Below the pieces are notes generated by a model. That model was given only the letters and a program-made list of their open reading frames with translations, was not told the origin of the DNA and made no database searches. The position numbers and the translations under genes are program-made. Below are positions 50,929 through 61,102 of a stretch of DNA of 64,000 nucleotides, piece by piece (position 1 is the first letter of the stretch; each line of letters opens with the position of its first letter). This DNA comes from a bacterium (GTDB lineage: Bacteria > Zhuqueibacterota > Zhuqueibacteria > Residuimicrobiales > Krinioviventaceae): contig OY843751.1 of the NCBI GenBank assembly GCA_963693055.1, forward strand, positions 928,001 through 992,000, read 5' to 3'.

Positions 50929-53900
50929 ATGTTGAAAAAAACGACAACCCTCACTTTTCAGATTGCTATTGCGGTCCTCCTGAGTCTTACCGCATTTGCA
51001 TTTGCGCAAACCAGTACAGATGACTTTGACCGTCCTGATGGCGCTCTGGGTGCTAACTGGACCTCTGATACCGATCTGGTAATTGCAAGCGGAAAATTGC
51101 ATAACCAAAGTGCAGGTTCTGACTGGTTACTTGCTATATATGATGGCAATGGAACCGTCACTAATCCTGATGAGGTCACAATTAATTGGGCTACTACCGG
51201 TGACGGAGTACAATGGGGTGGCGCAGCATTTGTGAATACCAATGCATCCGTTGGGGCTGCAAACGGTTACCTGGTCCAATATCGGCTCAGCTCTCCTAAC
51301 AAAATCCGTTTATGGAAAATTACTTCCGGCGCATTGGATGTAGGTGCAGGTATTGTTGATGAAGTAACCGCATCCGGTTCTGCTCCCACTGCTGATGCTC
51401 CTTTGAAAGTGAATCTTGACCCTGCAACCTACACATTACAGGTTTATGTGGATGATGTGATTGCCGGATCAGTTCAAGATGCAGGTGCTTCATATGATCT
51501 GACCAATCGTTTTGGTGCTGTGGTACTGGCAAGTGGTTCAAGCCTGAATAATGATGTTGAAGATTTTACCGTTGGCATTGAAACTCCGGACAATATTGCA
51601 CCCAATGCAGTGTCTGATTTGAGTGCAACAGCTACCGGAGCTTCTACAGTATTGCTGGAATGGACAGCAAGCGGAGATGACGGAGCTACCGGGCAGGCTT
51701 CACAATATGATATTCGTTATTCAACAAGTCCTATTGCCACCAATACAGACTTTTCAAATGCACAACAAGTAAACGGAGAACCTACACCTCAGATAACCGG
51801 CTCTGACGAGTCTTTTGTTGTGAATGGATTGAATGCCAGCACCACTTATTATTTTTGTCTAAAGGTTGGTGATGATAATGGCAACTTTTCTGCTATTTCG
51901 AATTCAACCTATGCCGCTACAGAAGAAAGTGGCGGGACAGGCAGCGAAGGTGGATTACTAACAGTCACAGATGATTTTGAACGTGCTGATTTGGGTACCA
52001 GTTGGGCTGCAACAGCCAAACACCAAATCAAAAATGGTACGTTAGATGTTATTGATGGTACATCAACAGACTGGAATAACCTTGCCGTATATAAAGGTAA
52101 CCGTTCAGTGAGTCCTGCGGGTGTTTCAATTTGGCTGGATGATACGGAATGTAGTGCTAGTGGTGCGCTGGCTGTAGGTACAGCTATTTTGCTGGATTCC
52201 CCTTCAAGTAGTGCCAGTGGTTATTTTATTTTACGACGTACCAGCAGTCTTGAATTGTGGGATTTAAGCAATGGTGTTGTTGGAGCAGGTGGACGTTTGG
52301 CACGTGATTCCAATCCAGACCAACCTGATCCTACTCCTGGAGATAGAATTAAGGTCATGGTAACCGGTGATGACGATACCGGTACTATTACTATAGATGT
52401 ATATGTAAATGATTATATGGACGGACAGTTTATATTAAATGGTACCGAACCCTCTACCTGGTATGCAGGTGTTTTTCAACATGGTTCTTATGCAAATAAT
52501 ATAGATGCTTTTACTATATATTCTGATGGCAGCAGTGCTGAAATGATCAGTGAATATTATGGAAATGGCCAGGCTGGTCCTATTCAGGCAACTTTGAGTG
52601 ATTCCATTGCCGTTCAGGTTACCGATGGTTTGGGTAATCCTGCAGCGGGCACTGTTGTTAATTTTGATATTGTAAATGGTGATGCTACACTGAGTATTGA
52701 TAGTTATGATTACGGCGGTTTGATCTGGAAAGAAGTTGAAGATGGTGCTATTCTTTCTCCTGCTGTTACTCAGGCAGATGCAAACGCCTCAAATGGTACT
52801 TTTGTATTAACTCCTAATGATATACAATACTCCCGACAGGGTGGTTCGGTTATGAACCTGTATGTTCCTGAAGCGGGTAATTTTAATGTATGGTTACGTG
52901 TAATTGCTCCTTCGTCCACCTCAAATAGTTTGTTTTTGCGGGTTAATGATGGCGATACAACAGAAGTGAAATGGGGTAACACCTGGACTTCCTGGCGTTG
53001 GGAGATGCTTAAAAATATTAGTCTGGCAAAAGGATTTAACCAGGTCAGTATTTTAACACGTGAAGAAGGTACACAATTTGACAAGATTGTGCTTGCTGAA
53101 ACCACCAAGCAGCCCGGTTACACACCTACGGGAACGGGCGGTTCAGGATCAACTTTGCCAAACGTTACGGATGTGAATGGTATTGCATATACATTTGTAA
53201 CCTTTTTAACCAATGCTGACGATGATGTTGTAATTGAAGCTTCTGCTTTTAAAGATGATGGCTCAACTGCATTAACCGGCTCTCCGGTAACATTTACTCT
53301 TGATCCTATATCAGGTTCCGCTGTTTCTATTGTCAGAGACCCCGCGCAGCCGGATACTCTTTTGGGTGAACCCATTCAGCAAATGACAACGCCATTGCGT
53401 GCCTATGTACGAGATTCTTTTGGCAATGGTGTTAGCGGTGTTTCTGTAAGTTGGGCGATTACAGAAGGAACCGGTACTTTATCTTCATCTCAAAATACAA
53501 CGGGTAATACTGGTACTTCTGAGACCTATTTAACGTTGTCAGCACAAAATACACCTTATACTATACAGGCAACAGCTGCAGGTCTTTCCGGATCTCCGGT
53601 CAGTTTTTATGTAAAACCGGGTGATCCCCCAACGGAAATACAGCAAACCAATCCTACAACACAGGTAGCTGGTGATGCTGGTGTTGAATTGACAGAAATT
53701 TTAACAGTTCGCGTAATTACCGAAGATGGTACGCCATTTCCGGGTTTTCCGGTAAATTATGTAGTAACCGAAGGTGATGGAGCACTGAGTTCTGAACTTG
53801 GCTCTGAAAACGCTACTGAAATACAGATCCTTTCTGATGAAAACGGTTATGCCCGCGCGCGTTGGGTATTGGGAGATGAACCCGGTCTCAATCGTGTTGA

Positions 53901-56900
53901 AGCACAAGCAGAAGGATTGACCAACAGTCCAATTTTATTTGAAGCTTTGGGTGAAATTGGCGATCCTTCCTTATTAACCATTATTGATGGTAATAATCAA
54001 TCTGGTCCTTTGGGACTTGCATTGCAAGAACCTTTTATTGTTAAATTAACTGATCAGGTTGGTAATGGTATCCCAAATCAGAATATAGAATATCGTATAC
54101 TTCAAGGTTCTGGTGCAACGTTGGGATCTTCAGGATTAACAGTTCGGAACGTAAAAACTGATGCAGAAGGTGTTGCCCGGGATACGTTGGTGATTGGTAA
54201 TCAGGTAGGCCAAACACACCAGGTGCAGGTATCTGTTGCAGGTAATTCTTCGGTATCCGCTCAAATCTTTTATGCAACTGCTACAGCAGCAATTGCAAGT
54301 GAAATTGTCTATGTTTCTGGTAATGGTGTCAAAGTCGGAACCGCTTATAATTATCAGAGTTCTACCGTGAATACTACATTGGCTCAGGACTTTATCGTTC
54401 AGGTGAATGGTCCTTTTGGTAATGATCCTATTGCCGGCCATGCGGTTACATTTAGAGTTGTAAGCGGTGGTGGTAATTTTTATGGTAATAACAGTACAAC
54501 AGTCAGTACCGGTCCTGATGGAAGAGCGTCTGCAAGACTGACATTGGGTTCTGTAGCTGGCGACAGTGTGCACATAGTTGAAGCTACGGCAAACCGTGTT
54601 GATAATACAACCTTGATGTTAAACAATGCTCCCATCATCTTTAAAGCTGATGGGACGGCATCTGATCCCAACAAGATCACCAAAATGGACTCTACAGACA
54701 ACCAAACCGGTATTGTTGGCGATCCGCTTACTAAACAGGTTCAGGCACTAGTTTCTGATATTTATGGTAATCCTATTAGTGGTCACCAGGTGACTTTTCA
54801 GATTATAAATAATGGTGGCGCATTGCAGGGCTCTACCGGTGAACCGGCTCAGGCCAAACAGGTAACGACCAACGCAAAAGGTATTGCTTCCATTATTTGG
54901 GTTATGCCCACTACACCCGGTCAGGTCCAGATGCAGGCTTTTGCAACAACTGCTACAAGCAATCCTTTGACGGGCAGCCCCATTACATACACCGCTTATG
55001 CCGGCGTTGATGCTGCATATGAAATGGTCAGAGTAACCGGTCAAGATTTGTCTGGTATTGTGGGACAACCACTTGCAGAAAATGCAAGCGTGAAAATTGT
55101 TGATCAATACTCGAATGCAGTTTCCAGTTACCCTGTAACCTTTACCATTACCGATGGTAATGGTCTTGTGAATGGCAGCAATCAGGTTACCGTTCAAACC
55201 GGCACGAATGGAATTGCTTCAGTAGAGTGGACATTGGGTACCGAAAGTGGTTTTGAAAATAATGCTATGGAAGCCACTTCTAGTGTATCAATGAATAATA
55301 AAGAAACCTTTACCGCATCCGGATTGGCTGATGTAGCTTTCCGTATGATTGCGGATTCAACCTATGATACCTTTGGTATTGTAGGCGAGTTGCTGGATAC
55401 ACCCATCAAGGTATTGATTGTTGACCAGTACGATAACCCTGTTGCGGACTATCCCGTAACATTTGAAATTGATGATATTGATGATAATGTAGGTTTTATT
55501 GAAACTGAAGGTACCTTGTCGAAAGTAGAGTCTACTGATGATGACGGTTATGCTCAAATTCGTTGGGGATTGGGACCAAATCCTGGTTCTCAAAACAACA
55601 AACTGACCGTTACTACTAAACGGAATAACATTCATTTAATCAATTCTCCTTATAATGGATTTGTAGTTTCCGCACAGGCGGGTAACGCTTACCAAGTAAT
55701 CAAAGTAACCGATGATGTAACCAAAGAGCTTAGCTCTGTTCATGGCAGCACTTTGCCCGAATATTTAAAGGTCAAGGTTGTTGATAAATTTGGAACTCCT
55801 ATCGCAAGACATCCGGTAACATTCCAGGTATTGAGCCGACTGGTTGCTGATGGTGGTACCCTTGACGGCAGTGTAGATACCGTAAAGGTTAAAGAGACGG
55901 ATTCTAATGGTATTGCATCTGTACAGTTTACTTTGGGTCTGAATGCCGGAAGCAAGATTAATCAGGTCCAGTATGTTGCTGAATTAAATGGCGAGAACCT
56001 TGAAGGCTCACCAGGCACATTCGAGATAACTGGTCTGTCTTCTACCGCCACCCAAATTGTCAAGGTAGCTGGTGATGAACAGCCAGACGGTATTGTGGGC
56101 CAGTTCTGGGATATTCCATTGCAGGTTGCTGCTAAAGATAAAAATGGAAACTATGTTGCCGGACAACCGGTCAGTTTCAAGATTTTACCCAAAGAGGATT
56201 TAATTGAAGAAACACTGGGTTCGTTGGGCGCCGGAACTGCAACCGATACTACGATTTTAACCAACGCTGAAGGACTTGCCATTATTAACTGGCGTGCTGG
56301 TCATCTGGTTGGTGAATATCAGGTCCAGGTTACTTCCTTTGCACTTGCAGAACTTGCCGGTTCACCCATGACTTTTACTGCGACTGCTTTTGCAGAAACC
56401 ACAGACGCAGACCAGTCCATGATTTCAGTCAATCCGGACAGTCTGAATGTTTCTGATGGTTCAATCAGATCTACAATCGTAGTAACATTAAAAGATAAAT
56501 ATGGTAATCCGGTTCAAAACAAGGGTGTTACTTTACAAGCCTCCGGAACCGGTAATATCATCACACAACCGGCTACAGCATCTAATTCAAATGGTCAGGT
56601 AACCGGTTATATTGCATCTGAAAATTCTGGCTTGAAAAATATTTCAGCCCGCGATATTAATAATGAAGTTGATATGGTAGACAAGGCCCAGGTTTATTTC
56701 CGTGCTTCCGAAGCAGACAGGATTGTTAAACATCCGACTGCGAATGGAGACGGACAAAAACGTAACGTGGGTACAGTACTTGAAAATCCACTTCAGGTTG
56801 TTGTTGAAGATTCGTACGGCAACCCCATTCCCAATTTCCCGGTAGTGTTTACAGTTACAGGAGCACAAACGGGTGGTCAGATTGTTGAAAATGTAAATGT

Positions 56901-59154
56901 AACAACTGATGAAAATGGTGTTGCATCTCGTTATTACAGACTTGGTACGGTTAAAGGTATAAATACAATCCAGGTGACTGCACAGGGCATATCCGGTTCT
57001 TCGGTGATTTTCAATGTTGAAAGTGATAATCCCGTTGATTTGCAGAAACCCGTAATTGTAAGTGGTGACAGCGCTCGTGTTTCTCCTGCCCAGCCATTGC
57101 CCGAAGACCTGGTTGTTCAAGTTGTAGATGAACGCGGTTGGCCGGTTTGGAATGAAGGTGTATTGTTTGAAGCATTGAGTACAAACGATGGTCAAATAAC
57201 CAGTAGTAATCCACACAATACCGATTGGTATGGATACGCACGCGCGCAAGCCCAGGTTGGTACCAAAGTGGGTATTAATCTCTTTAGCGCAAAACTTGAA
57301 GAATATCCTGGTAAAGGTACAGTTACATTCTATGCATGGACTGTATCTGCATCTACTGCCAAGTATCTTACTTTTGTAAGCGGACCTACCAGTGGTGTTG
57401 TAGGTCAATCTTTGAGTAGTCCGGTCATTATGAAAACTACGGATGAATATGACAACCCGGTACAGAATGTTACCGTAACATTCCTGGTTGTGGATGATGC
57501 CAGTGTTGACGGTGCAGGTACTTTGCAAGGTGGATTGAAATCCGTAACAAAACAAACAGACAGTAATGGTGAAGTAAGTATATTTTATACACTGGATACA
57601 GTAAGCGGAATAAACAAGATCCGTGTATCTTCATTAAATCTTGAACCCAGTAGTTATGTGGTAACCATAACAGGTAATGCGGATTCACCCTACCGTATGG
57701 AGAAATTCTCTGGTGATAATCAGCGTGGTGAAATGAGTAAACACTTGTTTAATCCTATCTATGTTATGGTACGTGACAGATACGGCAACCCGGCTCCTGG
57801 TGGTGTTGTGACCTTTACCGTAACTCAGGGTGATGGCAGCATCGATGGCGATCAATCCGTACAATCCAATTCAAACGGTCTTGCCAGAGCATACTGGGTA
57901 TTAGGCCCGCGTCCATATGCTGTAAACAACAGTGTTCAGGTTACCAGCTCTTATTTGCAGGGAGGTCCTTTGACTTTTAATGCAACAGGAGATGATCAAA
58001 ATTATCCTGAATTCTCATCATTGCCAAGTAATGTTGAAGTATTTGAGCTTGCAAATATAAGGCTCGAAATTTCAGCTACTGATGAAGATGGCGAAAACGT
58101 ATTCTATAACTCTCAGAATCTGCCATCAGGTGCAAGCTTTGAGATGGAAAGTAACAACAAGTACTATTTCAAATGGACACCGGGACTTGATGTTGTAAAC
58201 AGTCCGGATGTCAGCCAGACATTCTACCCGATCTTTATTGCTCAGGATGATCATGATCCCTCTGGTCGTGTAAAGGATTCGGTCAAAGTTGTAATCAAAA
58301 ATTACAACCGTCCGCCCGAAATTACTAAATATACACCGGAAGCTTCCAGCTTGGATTGGAATCAGGATGAAGTAGCGAGTATTTCTTTTAGTATTGAAAC
58401 CAATGATCTGGATAATGATCCTTTGACTGTTACCTGGTATGTGGGAGACACCCAGGTTGAAGAAGGTCATAATTTGACATTGACTAGTGGTGATTATGAA
58501 AATGGTGTCTATACTGTTAAAGTTAGCGTGAGTGATCAGTTTGCGACCACTGAAAAGTTATGGCAGGTTACTACATCATTAGTCGAGTTGAGTAGTTTTA
58601 GCGCTGTTTCTGAACCTTATAAAGGGATTACCGTTGAGTGGGAAACAGCATCAGAAATTGCAACCGCTGGATTCAATGTATTACGGAGTCTTTCAGAAAC
58701 CGGTACATTTGAAAAAATCAACGAGGATATGATTCTGCCCAACAAGGAAAAGATCTATAGTATTCAGGATAAAGAAGTTCAATCCGGGCAGACCTATTAT
58801 TACAAGCTTGAAGATGTTAGCCTTAGCGGACTTGCAACCCATCATGGTCCTATCTCTGTAGAGGCGCCGGTTCCGAAAAAGTTCTCGTTATCTCAGAACT
58901 ATCCGAATCCGTTTAACCCGGTTACGACTATCCAGTTCGAGCTGCCTAAACATACAGATGTTACCATAGAGGTCTATAATATTATGGGACAAATGGTGAA
59001 TCAACTGATCAATACTCGATTTGAAGCCGGATACCACACCGTTCAATGGGATGGTACAAATTCGAATGGTATGCGGGTTGGTTCAGGTGTTTACTATTAC
59101 CGAATTATAGCCGGAGATTTCAAGAATGTTAAAAAGATGGTATTGTTGAAATAA
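50929..59154 (+). CDS. Giant (2741 aa) secreted adhesin-like protein: 2 DDF(D/E)R lectin-like domains, FN3, ~15 Big_1/invasin-type Ig repeats, CBM-like insert, cadherin-like domains, FlgD-Ig/T9SS-type C-terminal sorting domain
   Basis: GGAGGT RBS, signal peptide, WTASGDDG..YDIRYS FN3, repeated GD.Q.G.VG..L..PL.V.V.D.YGNPV, VELSSFSA, LSQNYPNPFNPVTTI...GVYYYRI...KKMVLLK. Confidence 0.9.
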   Translation: MLKKTTTLTFQIAIAVLLSLTAFAFAQTSTDDFDRPDGALGANWTSDTDLVIASGKLHNQSAGSDWLLAIYDGNGTVTNPDEVTINWATTGDGVQWGGAAFVNTNASVGAANGYLVQYRLSSPNKIRLWKITSGALDVGAGIVDEVTASGSAPTADAPLKVNLDPATYTLQVYVDDVIAGSVQDAGASYDLTNRFGAVVLASGSSLNNDVEDFTVGIETPDNIAPNAVSDLSATATGASTVLLEWTASGDDGATGQASQYDIRYSTSPIATNTDFSNAQQVNGEPTPQITGSDESFVVNGLNASTTYYFCLKVGDDNGNFSAISNSTYAATEESGGTGSEGGLLTVTDDFERADLGTSWAATAKHQIKNGTLDVIDGTSTDWNNLAVYKGNRSVSPAGVSIWLDDTECSASGALAVGTAILLDSPSSSASGYFILRRTSSLELWDLSNGVVGAGGRLARDSNPDQPDPTPGDRIKVMVTGDDDTGTITIDVYVNDYMDGQFILNGTEPSTWYAGVFQHGSYANNIDAFTIYSDGSSAEMISEYYGNGQAGPIQATLSDSIAVQVTDGLGNPAAGTVVNFDIVNGDATLSIDSYDYGGLIWKEVEDGAILSPAVTQADANASNGTFVLTPNDIQYSRQGGSVMNLYVPEAGNFNVWLRVIAPSSTSNSLFLRVNDGDTTEVKWGNTWTSWRWEMLKNISLAKGFNQVSILTREEGTQFDKIVLAETTKQPGYTPTGTGGSGSTLPNVTDVNGIAYTFVTFLTNADDDVVIEASAFKDDGSTALTGSPVTFTLDPISGSAVSIVRDPAQPDTLLGEPIQQMTTPLRAYVRDSFGNGVSGVSVSWAITEGTGTLSSSQNTTGNTGTSETYLTLSAQNTPYTIQATAAGLSGSPVSFYVKPGDPPTEIQQTNPTTQVAGDAGVELTEILTVRVITEDGTPFPGFPVNYVVTEGDGALSSELGSENATEIQILSDENGYARARWVLGDEPGLNRVEAQAEGLTNSPILFEALGEIGDPSLLTIIDGNNQSGPLGLALQEPFIVKLTDQVGNGIPNQNIEYRILQGSGATLGSSGLTVRNVKTDAEGVARDTLVIGNQVGQTHQVQVSVAGNSSVSAQIFYATATAAIASEIVYVSGNGVKVGTAYNYQSSTVNTTLAQDFIVQVNGPFGNDPIAGHAVTFRVVSGGGNFYGNNSTTVSTGPDGRASARLTLGSVAGDSVHIVEATANRVDNTTLMLNNAPIIFKADGTASDPNKITKMDSTDNQTGIVGDPLTKQVQALVSDIYGNPISGHQVTFQIINNGGALQGSTGEPAQAKQVTTNAKGIASIIWVMPTTPGQVQMQAFATTATSNPLTGSPITYTAYAGVDAAYEMVRVTGQDLSGIVGQPLAENASVKIVDQYSNAVSSYPVTFTITDGNGLVNGSNQVTVQTGTNGIASVEWTLGTESGFENNAMEATSSVSMNNKETFTASGLADVAFRMIADSTYDTFGIVGELLDTPIKVLIVDQYDNPVADYPVTFEIDDIDDNVGFIETEGTLSKVESTDDDGYAQIRWGLGPNPGSQNNKLTVTTKRNNIHLINSPYNGFVVSAQAGNAYQVIKVTDDVTKELSSVHGSTLPEYLKVKVVDKFGTPIARHPVTFQVLSRLVADGGTLDGSVDTVKVKETDSNGIASVQFTLGLNAGSKINQVQYVAELNGENLEGSPGTFEITGLSSTATQIVKVAGDEQPDGIVGQFWDIPLQVAAKDKNGNYVAGQPVSFKILPKEDLIEETLGSLGAGTATDTTILTNAEGLAIINWRAGHLVGEYQVQVTSFALAELAGSPMTFTATAFAETTDADQSMISVNPDSLNVSDGSIRSTIVVTLKDKYGNPVQNKGVTLQASGTGNIITQPATASNSNGQVTGYIASENSGLKNISARDINNEVDMVDKAQVYFRASEADRIVKHPTANGDGQKRNVGTVLENPLQVVVEDSYGNPIPNFPVVFTVTGAQTGGQIVENVNVTTDENGVASRYYRLGTVKGINTIQVTAQGISGSSVIFNVESDNPVDLQKPVIVSGDSARVSPAQPLPEDLVVQVVDERGWPVWNEGVLFEALSTNDGQITSSNPHNTDWYGYARAQAQVGTKVGINLFSAKLEEYPGKGTVTFYAWTVSASTAKYLTFVSGPTSGVVGQSLSSPVIMKTTDEYDNPVQNVTVTFLVVDDASVDGAGTLQGGLKSVTKQTDSNGEVSIFYTLDTVSGINKIRVSSLNLEPSSYVVTITGNADSPYRMEKFSGDNQRGEMSKHLFNPIYVMVRDRYGNPAPGGVVTFTVTQGDGSIDGDQSVQSNSNGLARAYWVLGPRPYAVNNSVQVTSSYLQGGPLTFNATGDDQNYPEFSSLPSNVEVFELANIRLEISATDEDGENVFYNSQNLPSGASFEMESNNKYYFKWTPGLDVVNSPDVSQTFYPIFIAQDDHDPSGRVKDSVKVVIKNYNRPPEITKYTPEASSLDWNQDEVASISFSIETNDLDNDPLTVTWYVGDTQVEEGHNLTLTSGDYENGVYTVKVSVSDQFATTEKLWQVTTSLVELSSFSAVSEPYKGITVEWETASEIATAGFNVLRSLSETGTFEKINEDMILPNKEKIYSIQDKEVQSGQTYYYKLEDVSLSGLATHHGPISVEAPVPKKFSLSQNYPNPFNPVTTIQFELPKHTDVTIEVYNIMGQMVNQLINTRFEAGYHTVQWDGTNSNGMRVGSGVYYYRIIAGDFKNVKKMVLLK

Positions 59155-59174
59155 GGAAAATTTTCCGGTAGGTT
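59155..59174 (+). repeat. Left terminal inverted repeat
   Basis: GGAAAATTTTCCGGTAGGTT; outer 12 bp palindromic. Confidence 0.82.
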
Positions 59175-59259
59175 TTGGAAAAAAGGCGGTTATTTCATAT
59201 AGTATTTACTAGAAGTAACCGGAAGTCAAACAAAGATTTCAAAACTTACCGGAGGACAA

Positions 59260-60087
59260 ATGTACAATACTCGTAGTAGTTTGTATGACAGGATATTAGA
59301 AAAAACACCCGAGCAAGTATTCATCAATTCTTTACGAAAAGAATTTGAATTATCACCGGCAGAAAGTAAAGGGATATTGGATTTAGCCAAGCAGTGTTTA
59401 TTTGGCGAGGTTCCCCAGACAGTTGGTAAAATAAAATATATCTGCGCATCCACCAAGGCAAAACATGGCAAGCCCCTGGGTGAGCAGGAATTGAAAGAAG
59501 TAGAGTTAACACTGGATGCCGGTGTAGAAGATTTAAATGTATTAAAAGAAAGCGGTCCCAAGGCACTGCGCCAGTTAAAGGTCTTACGATTGACCGAAGA
59601 AGCCTGGGATCAGGAAGGTTCTTTGACACAAGAGGATTTGGCCCGGATCCTCCAGGTTACGAGTCGCACTGTACGCCAGGATATAAAGTCTTTGCAGACT
59701 GATGGCAACTTTATTCACACGCGCGGAACAGACCATGACATCGGTCGGAGCTTGTCACACAAAAGCCACATTATTGAACTGTATTTGCAGGGAGACACAT
59801 ACGATGCAATTATTCGTAAAAGTCGTCATAGCGCGTTTTCAATAAAACGATATGTGTGCAGCTTTGGCAGGCTGTTGTTATTACTGAATCATGGTATGCA
59901 GGATATCAAAGAGATCAGTCGGTTATTAGGCCAAAGTGAGCGTTTGACCCGTGAGTACCTGGATATTTTTGAGCATCATAAACAGGGTGACAAATGGCCG
60001 CCGATCTATGTAGAGTTATTGGAGCAATTAAAGGTGTTATACCCCTCGAAAAAAAAACAAACCAAGGAGGGGATCGATGAAGACTAA
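59260..60087 (+). CDS. DUF1670-family HTH protein A (candidate transposition protein)
   Basis: GGAGG RBS; RLTEEAWDQEGSLTQEDLARILQVTSRTVRQDI (HTH), TRG..HDIG..LSHK..IIELYLQG, HS..SIKRY. Confidence 0.82.
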   Translation: MYNTRSSLYDRILEKTPEQVFINSLRKEFELSPAESKGILDLAKQCLFGEVPQTVGKIKYICASTKAKHGKPLGEQELKEVELTLDAGVEDLNVLKESGPKALRQLKVLRLTEEAWDQEGSLTQEDLARILQVTSRTVRQDIKSLQTDGNFIHTRGTDHDIGRSLSHKSHIIELYLQGDTYDAIIRKSRHSAFSIKRYVCSFGRLLLLLNHGMQDIKEISRLLGQSERLTREYLDIFEHHKQGDKWPPIYVELLEQLKVLYPSKKKQTKEGIDED

Positions 60088-60892
60088 GCCTTTAAATCGT
60101 TATGAATCAATAGCTAAGCGTAGCTTTCAAAATGCGATTATTCGATTACTGGAAGAAAATTATAAAATGCTGGGAAGCCACAAAGTCATCCGGATGATTG
60201 CAGAAGATATTGTCGCATTGCAAAATGAATTTTATCCAGAGCTGGAAAAGAAAAGTTTTGGTCAGATTATCTGGCGGACAACCAAAGCGACAAACCGAAA
60301 GCCAAGCTATGGCACAAAAGCGGAAGATTATGAGGTTCAGACAGTTGTGCTACCGTTGGTAACAGATGCGGATATTGACAATCGTATCAAAAGCCATTAT
60401 TCTTATCCCCCAAAAGATGGCAGTGCTAATTATGAAAAACAAACAGAACGGGATATTAAAGTAATGGCGCGGTTATGCAAGAGTGCGGCAGAACAGGGCG
60501 GCTGGTTGACAGGTGCAGAACTCAGTGTATTGTTGAATCGCTCATTAAACACTATTGGTCGGTATATGACAATTTATCATGAAACGCATGATGATATATT
60601 GCCGACTAAAGGAATGATGCTGGATCAGGGCAGTAAGCCGACGCATAAAGCCGCAATTATAGATTTGTACGAGCAGGGATATCCCGAACCGGATATCGCC
60701 CGGATTACAAATCACACAATTGAATCAACGAGTCGGTATTTAAAGAGTTACAAGAACGTAAAATCATTATTGGAAAAAGGTTTTAATTTAATGGAAATGG
60801 TAAGAATAACCGGATTAGGACGGAGTACAATATTACAATACCGTGATCTGGTTTATCATTATCATTCAGATTTAATACAAAAGAAAACTTGA
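60077..60892 (+). CDS. DUF1670-family HTH protein B (paralogue of A)
   Basis: AAGGAGG RBS, overlaps the A stop by 11 nt; RLCKSAAEQGGWLTGAELSVLLNRSLNTI, PTKG..LDQG..PTHK..IIDLYEQG, NHT.ESTSRY. Confidence 0.82.
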   Translation: MKTKPLNRYESIAKRSFQNAIIRLLEENYKMLGSHKVIRMIAEDIVALQNEFYPELEKKSFGQIIWRTTKATNRKPSYGTKAEDYEVQTVVLPLVTDADIDNRIKSHYSYPPKDGSANYEKQTERDIKVMARLCKSAAEQGGWLTGAELSVLLNRSLNTIGRYMTIYHETHDDILPTKGMMLDQGSKPTHKAAIIDLYEQGYPEPDIARITNHTIESTSRYLKSYKNVKSLLEKGFNLMEMVRITGLGRSTILQYRDLVYHYHSDLIQKKT

Positions 60893-60923
60893 AAATTTGA
60901 AAAGGAATTAATAGGTTAGGTTG

Positions 60924-60984
60924 TCATTGTTTTTCAGCTAACTCCAGTCGCCCTACGGGCTCCTTTCGTTAGCTGAAAAAATGA
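60924..60984 (+). other. Structured stem-loop inside the element's right end (possible cis-acting RNA or ssDNA structure)
   Basis: 13-bp stem TTTTTCAGCTAAC/GTTAGCTGAAAAA enclosing an internal loop and a GCCC-TACG-GGC hairpin (C-UACG-G, UNCG-type tetraloop). Confidence 0.65.
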
Positions 60985-61007
60985 ATAAATGTTCTAATCT
61001 TAAAAAC

Positions 61008-61027
61008 AACCTACCGGAAATATTTCC
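61008..61027 (-). repeat. Right terminal inverted repeat
   Basis: AACCTACCGGAAATATTTCC; outer 12 bp GGAAATATTTCC palindromic. Confidence 0.82.
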
Positions 61028-61057
61028 TAAACGTAAATAAAAATAAACTCCAGATCA

Positions 61058-61102
61058 AACAAAAAAAAGCCGGCATCTTTAAGATGCCGGCTTTTTTTTG
61101 TT
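61058..61102. terminator. Bidirectional intrinsic terminator between convergent genes
   Basis: AACAAAAAAAAGCCGGCATCTT-T-AAGATGCCGGCTTTTTTTTGTT; 22-bp arms with A8/T8 tracts. Confidence 0.92.

Follow-up and report, generated by a model that had tools for sequence, protein, structure and literature searches.

A 1.9-kb mobile element at the final codon of secretion-tail genes that carries only two paralogous DUF1670 proteins

The window analysed here is a stretch of 64,000 nucleotides from a Zhuqueibacterota genome (assembly GCA_963693055.1, contig OY843751.1, positions 928,001 to 992,000). Coordinates without further qualification refer to it, and features lie on the + strand unless stated otherwise. 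Positions 50929..59154 hold a gene for a 2741-residue immunoglobulin (Ig)-repeat protein, intact in frame and ending in a type IX secretion system (T9SS) type A / FlgD-Ig tail (TIGR04183, 43.8 bits, where the cut-off is 23). This host protein is of the secreted type and has at least 11 Big_1 repeats. At the very end of the gene begins the element that is our subject, spanning 59149..61034, or 1886 bp when one copy of its AA core is counted. Its only cargo is two open reading frames (ORFs) matching DUF1670: ORF A (59260..60087, 275 residues, PF07900 E 7e-47) and ORF B (60077..60892, 271 residues, PF07900 E 5e-48), as the initial annotation, which had proposed a new transposon family here, correctly recognised. 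The same annotation had placed the host gene's terminator downstream of the element; it lies at 61058..61102, is now parted from its gene and adjoins the stop codon in the empty allele of a relative. This 1.9-kb element is real, present in multiple copies, and mobile.

The limits of the element follow from the flanks of seven copies, from empty alleles in a same-genus genome (G001) and from the unitig ends of the source-sample assembly. On the left, the AA core (59149..59150) comprises the first two bases of the host gene's final lysine codon; it is followed by the terminal extension ATA (59151..59153) and by an inverted repeat (59154..59174) with an internal near-palindrome around AAATTT, so that core, ATA and the repeat's first A together give the host gene AAA TAA, a new lysine-stop. 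On the right, the partner repeat (61008..61028, - strand; 21 nt, 90% complementary) is followed by the element-owned extension AAACGT (61029..61034), constant in 7/7 copies and found in relatives, with the lineage variants AATAGT and AAACGA. Then comes the second AA core with the displaced original lysine-stop (61035..61040), which depends on the site and reads AAATAA, AAATAG or AAGTAG. The source genome holds seven full copies of this family (family 1) with unrelated flanks, six at 99.8% or above and one at 92.7%; in all of them AAATAA precedes the left repeat and TAAACGT follows the right one. Unitigs of the source-sample assembly start at 59149 and end at 61036, which corresponds to the element plus a second copy of the core.

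The orthologous allele of the window locus in G001 is empty and reads TTG AAA TAG AAATATACTCC, without ACGT; five of the seven family-1 sites were checked in this genome, and all five are empty. At 2264853 of the source genome, the empty site ends in AAG TAG; in the filled site this AAGTAG stands on the element's right side, and the gene itself ends in the element's AAATAA. Taken together with the other empty alleles and the constant flanks, this site shows that the repeats are sub-terminal and that the crossover falls at the first two bases of the final codon. For the element copy that G001 itself carries, no orthologous flank exists in the source genome. One family-2 site (see below) was resolved in its empty form, and the empty junction at source-genome position 2354410 could not be resolved.

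The initial annotation had pictured a classical transposon of 1873 bp with terminal inverted repeats and a duplicated TAA, and had predicted the empty site '...TTGAAA TAA ACGT...'. Its repeats exist, but they do not bound the element; further copies with different flanks and empty alleles were found as it had anticipated, but not the single-TAA form. TAA does flank both repeats in the window copy. TAAACGT is constant in every copy of the source genome and absent from the empty alleles, other lineages carry TAATAGT or TAAACGA in its place, and the only sequence common to both junctions is the 2-bp core. A classical element with terminal repeats and a TAA duplication is therefore refuted by the G001 alleles, and we give this possibility practically no credence.

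Elements of the same architecture occur elsewhere. A second DUF1670-pair family of 1852 bp (family 2) has six near-identical copies in the source genome (L031-L034, L026, L027), one of them at C1:56384-58237; its protein is about 33% identical to that of family 1. Orientation is fixed in each family, and family 2 enters the same class of site with its ORFs reversed. Within the phylum, DUF1670 was found in 33 of 167 genomes, mostly as pairs, and it was also present in the control genome of Methanosarcina acetivorans. The initial annotation had suggested surveying such pairs for flanking inverted repeats: at 16 of 18 pair loci a repeat scored above the threshold (in two of them the best pair is not clearly an end), and at two there was none. 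A distant clade, from records titled Desulfobacterota, Bacteroidota, Ignavibacteria, Verrucomicrobia and others, inserts in the loop side of hairpins resembling repetitive extragenic palindromes (REP), mostly with a CT core and with the same end geometry; we refer to it as the hairpin clade. One short contig bears the label Bathyarchaeota but hardly differs from bacterial copies, and it may be misbinned. The multiple copies, the empty alleles, the purifying selection described below and the same architecture in distant clades bear out the proposal of an uncatalogued mobile element with a DUF1670 pair only. The family has been active recently.

Several loci show rearranged ends. At L223:2825-4631 each outer extension stands at the opposite end with respect to the ORFs, which would fit an inversion of the interior between the palindromic repeats; an inversion of this kind could account for the opposite directions of families 1 and 2. 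At L187, a scar composed of a left extension, one palindrome and a right extension lies upstream of a full left end and resembles a deletion between repeats.

Across family-1-like loci with both ends available (source-genome copies and their kin included), the core dinucleotide is equal on the left and right in 30 of 30, being AA in 29 and CG in one; 29 AA out of 29 is improbable at the background of 152/211 (7e-5, with rows that are not independent). Left and right junctions have similar core frequencies. Of 42 pairs of near-identical ends, 41 agree in the core, as would be expected if the element carries it; the only three of them with rare cores are two AG/AG pairs and one CG/CG pair. In the metagenomic junction set of at least 129 stretches, AAG occurs at AA-core junctions in 0/58 cases on the left and 6/25 on the right, among the matches listed and with about 20 chance pattern matches ignored. 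One might suppose that the two common bases are a true 2-bp target duplication, left by a staggered cut and gap repair, in which case the enzyme would be a new transesterification transposase and not a conservative recombinase. The equality in 30/30 loci and the similar frequencies at the two junctions fit this idea, and the acidic residues E125, D126 and D160 of ORF A could bind metal. However, a rare core stays with near-identical elements from one site to another (in only three informative pairs), the dinucleotides are unequal in 6/6 Verrucomicrobia copies, and in the hairpin clade the second core base is part of a -10 box that the element forms when its ends are joined. A duplication of this kind thus seems to us fairly unlikely.

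That box bears on how the element might travel. In 6 of 11 both-ended elements of the hairpin clade, joining the ends would create TTGA(C/A)n-17-TA(T/C)A(A/T)T, compared with 7 of 22000 shuffles (the kin not being independent), and the -10 box so formed starts with the second core base, which argues that this base belongs to the element. A promoter that appears on end-joining points to a circular intermediate, which we accordingly only predict. In such a circle the spacing between the palindrome centres, as read from the end sequences, would be 19 bp for family 1 and the hairpin clade and 20 bp for family 2. The commonest left extension at L207-L238, TATATTTG, fits both a sigma-70 -10 box and the Bacteroidota TAnnTTTG promoter element.

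ORFs A and B are paralogous, with 31% identity over 139 residues. Both are under purifying selection, the ratio of non-synonymous to synonymous substitution rates (dN/dS) being 0.058 for A and 0.073 for B against the G001 copy; three more distant copies are mostly saturated. Across 67 pairs, one well-supported branch divides the A proteins from the B proteins without exception, B forming a lineage separate from every A protein. D160, H167 and Y198 are present in every one of the 67 A and 67 B proteins, and R110, K/R168, H190 and Y233 are conserved at 97% or more, while R155, E125, D126, T137 and S226 are invariant in A only. The AlphaFold models are confident locally (predicted local distance difference test 84 for A and 89 for B). 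Both models are helical and have three short strands; a small region of helix plus strand at the N-terminus precedes three helix-turn-helix (HTH)-like units, and neither model contains a five-stranded sheet. A prediction of the A-B complex scored 0.18 against a mark of 0.32; it gave no verdict and was not used as evidence.

The two genes overlap, and near the end of A lies a run of nine As (60049..60057), a candidate A-to-B slippage site across which the B frame is open. A-runs of at least seven lie within the last 75 bases of A at 53 of 65 A/B junctions, as opposed to 172 of 3894 control ORF ends, and the B frame is open from the run in 47 junctions. Relative to A, B is in frame +1 in 43 cases and -1 in 21, the former mostly with A9 or longer and the latter mostly with A8 followed by G. 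Natural A-B fusions of 532-546 residues also exist. From these sequence patterns, it appears likely that A and B are fused by slippage at the A-run. IS3, IS1 and other two-ORF insertion sequences (IS), which fuse OrfA and OrfB by frameshifting or slippage, offer a parallel to the overlap of the two ORFs and the conserved run of A8-A9 where they meet; slippage on nine or eight As is described for IS genes in PMC1088944. Upstream of ORF A, a promoter-like TTGGAA-17-TATAGT adjoins the left repeat (59175..59203), as a consensus match only. In the copy at 93% (C1:2174034-2175906, L030), ORF A ends right after the A-run, at 266 residues, so that what follows the run in other copies looks dispensable.

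No DDE, DEDD, HUH, serine or tyrosine recombinase homology was detected in either ORF, in agreement with the initial annotation, which had noted the lack of the first four. Apart from DUF1670, both ORFs match only HTH families in Pfam, NCBIfam and PHROGs. The IS110 domains PF01548 and PF02371 match neither ORF at E 0.1 and are not among the 25 most frequent of the 68 families matching 94 members; an RNase H-fold DDE domain has no Pfam or NCBIfam match in either. The His-hydrophobic-His motif of HUH Y1 enzymes is not conserved in the 67 A and 67 B proteins and gave no Pfam match. No resolvase domain of the PF00239 type was matched, B matching only the resolvase HTH PF02796, and neither a TnsABC core nor a TnsD/TniQ selector is present in the element, which holds only its two DUF1670 ORFs. 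Structure searches, also suggested at the outset, returned HTH similarity and nothing beyond it: Foldseek against PDB gave no match at E 0.001 for A or B, a viral structure library gave low TM-scores only, and VIA-align of B returned HTH matches whose Z did not exceed 6.0. A PDB sequence search found only an HTH repeat protein, and the best score in the ESM Atlas without DUF1670 clusters, 0.81, is a lead only. Plasmids and phages searched by tblastn yielded no match, and IMG/VR yielded one weak match.

DUF1670 might also be a tyrosine recombinase that has diverged to an extreme degree, in which case the element would be a two-gene relative of the Tn554/RIT type; this would be a variant of the explanation that we prefer below, with no new enzyme class needed. 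XerD-like proteins of the source genome have a spacing of R - 23 - (H) - 9 - Y (R247 and Y279 are invariant in the alignment, and the middle His was read from the consensus), to which K/R168 - 22 - H190 - 8 - Y198 of DUF1670 comes close; in kind, too, its conserved residues are similar to the R-K-H-R-H/W-Y catalytic set of tyrosine recombinases. Yet the same spacing arises in any HTH of the LuxR/sigma-4 type. Pairs and triple fusions recall the pairs and trios of tyrosine recombinases, four single proteins of 930-952 residues (P0145, P0157, P0161, P0165) having three DUF1670 domains each, and the Tn1549 integrase stands at rank 35 of the Foldseek list with E 0.65. On the other hand, profile-profile comparison with five tyrosine recombinases gave probabilities of 1% and 3% from a shallow comparison profile and aligned to their N-terminal part, not the catalytic box. 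Integrase families are absent among the 25 most frequent Pfam matches of the 94 members, and the 2-bp core is below the 6-8 bp overlap usual for tyrosine recombinases. Overall, we hold this kinship to be rather improbable.

Another view limits the DUF1670 proteins to DNA binding and leaves the cutting to a recruited recombinase, whether of the host (XerC/D, for instance) or of another mobile element, so that the element would be non-autonomous for catalysis. HTH similarity is indeed all that can be detected, and the source genome has seven tyrosine-recombinase matches along with several other multi-copy repeats. Nevertheless, elements from many phyla share one end geometry, DNA binding alone would not call for so many conserved polar residues (R, D, H, K, H, Y, Y), and the predicted junction is unlike dif when set beside the dif consensus. 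Moreover, sequences within three mismatches of these ends belong, in the source genome, only to these elements or their remnants and accompany no other transposase gene, and PF01548 is absent from the whole complete genome, which means that it has no IS110 transposase. Both facts disfavour a partner acting in trans, and the non-autonomous alternative raised in the initial annotation is weakened accordingly. Recruitment of a foreign enzyme appears doubtful to us.

The choice of target is narrow. The source genome has about 200 genes with a C-terminal tail of the T9SS/FlgD type, and in 12 of 13 insertions of families 1 and 2, the final lysine-stop of such a gene is split and rebuilt: all seven family-1 copies are on target, as are five of six family-2 copies, with two copies stacked at one gene and the copy at 6088446 off target. 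Insertion at the last codon leaves the tail genes intact. In the window the target region is the last ~20 codons of the sorting tail (59092..59154; Y-x-Y ... K-K-M-h-h-h-K-stop). Of 57 metagenomic left flanks among the matches listed (four stacked insertions dropped), 54 translate to a tail-gene ending, and 14 source-genome genes of this kind are hit. Decaying solo left ends lie at C1:1730453, 5975654, 3844069 and ~5684744, all at tail-gene stops, and a solo right end at C1:333434 takes the place of a tail gene's last codons. Stacked insertions are seen at C1:507852-511585 (L026) and also at L005, L100, L110 and L126; there the newer element enters the rebuilt lysine-stop and the older one is shifted downstream, which indicates that target sites can be reused.

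How the proteins may find these sites can be approached with weight matrices. When the last 12 bases plus the stop are scored, 1644 genomic sites reach the weakest real site and only 95 of them are tail-gene stops, which leads us to reject the idea that a short local motif alone defines the target. With a matrix of 60 bases, 131 sites remain, 115 of them tail-gene stops. The outcome of the two matrices suggests that recognition likely extends far upstream. Selection alone is an unlikely source of the bias: tail genes account for 152 lysine-stops among 763 long ORFs ending in lysine-stop (counts from different ORF lists), and some 600 other long ORFs end in an equally repairable one.

IS1111 belongs to the IS110 superfamily, whose DEDD transposases choose their targets by a seekRNA or bridge RNA, and a small RNA from the non-coding ends might guide this element as well. 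Its ends are IS1111-like, its clades use unrelated targets (tail-gene stops and hairpins), and its non-coding ends of 111 and 142 nt include a hairpin on the right (60930..60980). This hairpin matches no Rfam family at the gathering score, though, and the right non-coding ends of five hairpin-clade elements, at only 19-27 nt, are too short for it. Furthermore, targets and joined ends have just one recurrent 7-mer in common, located at the core, and the target motif tracks codon positions and is too degenerate for base pairing. We would consider RNA guidance very improbable. A 26-nt piece of the hairpin recurs in the source genome at C1:2227121-2227146 and 2152972-2152997, two unrelated places that look like ends of another mobile element.

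Having weighed these alternatives, we think it quite probable that the element, seated at the final codon of secretion-tail genes, owes its movement to the two DUF1670 proteins that it encodes, which would act as an undescribed recombinase and work through a predicted circle. The best reading of the sequences is that of an autonomous element that would work like IS1111 with a new recombinase. In this scenario, A and B, probably together with a slippage-made A-B fusion, would bind the palindromic repeats through their HTH units. The ends would then be joined as a circle with the palindrome centres 19-20 bp apart, which in one clade would create the promoter of the genes. The same proteins would read the extended, degenerate tail-coding motif of ~60 bp, or in the other clade a hairpin, without a guide RNA. 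Finally, strand exchange at the 2-bp core, without a repaired duplication, would most likely proceed through a covalent protein-DNA link on a conserved tyrosine, the candidates being A Y198 / B Y221 or Y233 / Y255, with R110, R155, D160, H167, K/R168 and H190 as possible helpers. This chemistry is the weakest part of the mechanism, and its chances are about even. We lean slightly towards the broader proposal that DUF1670 represents a new recombinase class made almost wholly of HTH units, in which an A/B heterodimer or fusion would circularise the element and integrate it at the 2-bp core, and whose clades would have been retargeted by protein alone, some to the last codon of secretion-tail genes and others to the loops of REP-like hairpins.

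Several observations weigh against this interpretation. In one Verrucomicrobia genome the two junctions of six copies disagree, with CA at the left one and CG or CT at the right one, and the left and right cores differ at 2 of 11 hairpin-clade loci. The structural matches are generic HTH domains only, and the conserved histidines and tyrosines sit in HTH turns or recognition helices and could be structural. The junction promoter is absent from family-1-like ends (0/34 right ends), where a promoter-like site lies inside the left end instead. The exact 23-nt junction pattern had no match in metagenomes, and the source-sample contigs, which drop rare forms, show no end-joining for family 1 or 2. 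One joint in the family-2 search of that sample, at single-copy depth, connects a stretch of tail gene with an element end, and we read it as another chromosomal copy. Hit and un-hit tail genes are also alike at the upstream motif (14/14 and 118/138, p 0.22), so that long-range reading of DNA is deduced by exclusion.

The comparison with known systems is instructive. Classical DDE elements (IS3, IS5, IS630) differ in that here the repeats are not at the very ends and no TAA is duplicated. OrfB of the IS3/IS1 type holds a DDE domain, whereas both ORFs of our element are paralogous DUF1670 domains. IS605 has palindromes near its ends and no repaired duplication, and IS607 has a 2-bp core; our element shares the palindromes and the 2-bp core (with a core mismatch tolerated in one clade) and probably also the absence of a repaired duplication, but lacks the His-hydrophobic-His motif, the resolvase domain and TnpB of the IS200/IS605 and IS607 groups, and its ends are inverted repeats of each other. 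Tn554 and RIT elements carry two or three paralogous recombinase genes, insert site-specifically into a conserved gene and pass through a circular intermediate. Paralogous recombinase-like genes and site-specific insertion in a conserved gene recur here, with the circle only predicted, but there is no detectable integrase catalytic homology and the core has just 2 bp.

Closest in end structure is IS1111, for which a preprint describes sub-terminal repeats, asymmetric extensions, no true target duplication, a specific target and orientation, and a promoter in the joined circle (bioRxiv 10.1101/2024.04.26.591405). Our element agrees in its sub-terminal inverted repeats, asymmetric extensions and specific target and orientation and probably in the lack of a true target duplication, and joined ends would form such a promoter in the hairpin clade only. 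It departs from IS1111 in having no DEDD transposase, two DUF1670 ORFs instead of one gene, and no sign of a guide RNA; its repeats are 21 bp with internal palindromes as opposed to 11-13 bp, and its extensions are 3 and 6 bp plus the core as opposed to 7 and 3. TnsD of Tn7, according to PMC2918618, recognises the conserved 3' end of a coding sequence in the host and directs the transposon to the end of that gene, where it does no harm; to that extent our element resembles Tn7 at attTn7. However, Tn7 uses TnsABC+D and one conserved gene, while here two small proteins serve a degenerate motif in ~200 paralogous gene ends and the last codon is rebuilt. Tyrosine recombinases apart, the defining enzyme of each family examined is missing from the element.

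Literature searches by DUF1670, PF07900 and IPR012872 (which we take to be the InterPro number of DUF1670) found no paper, subscription journals, supplements and ISfinder lying outside their scope. The listings of topical literature on IS discovery and targeting name no DUF1670 family, nor do the available parts of PMC8147514 and PMC6563490 mention one. The family of insertion elements is thus apparently undescribed.

Known insertion sequences fall into few enzyme chemistries, and DUF1670 elements detectably have none of them. If our reading is true, an unstudied Pfam family gains a function and a new chemistry would take its place beside the DDE, DEDD, HUH, serine and tyrosine classes. Base-precise, scar-repairing insertion in the last codon of a family of ~200 paralogous genes is a surprising form of targeting, and a compact site-specific integrase that spares its target gene would be of interest to genome engineers.

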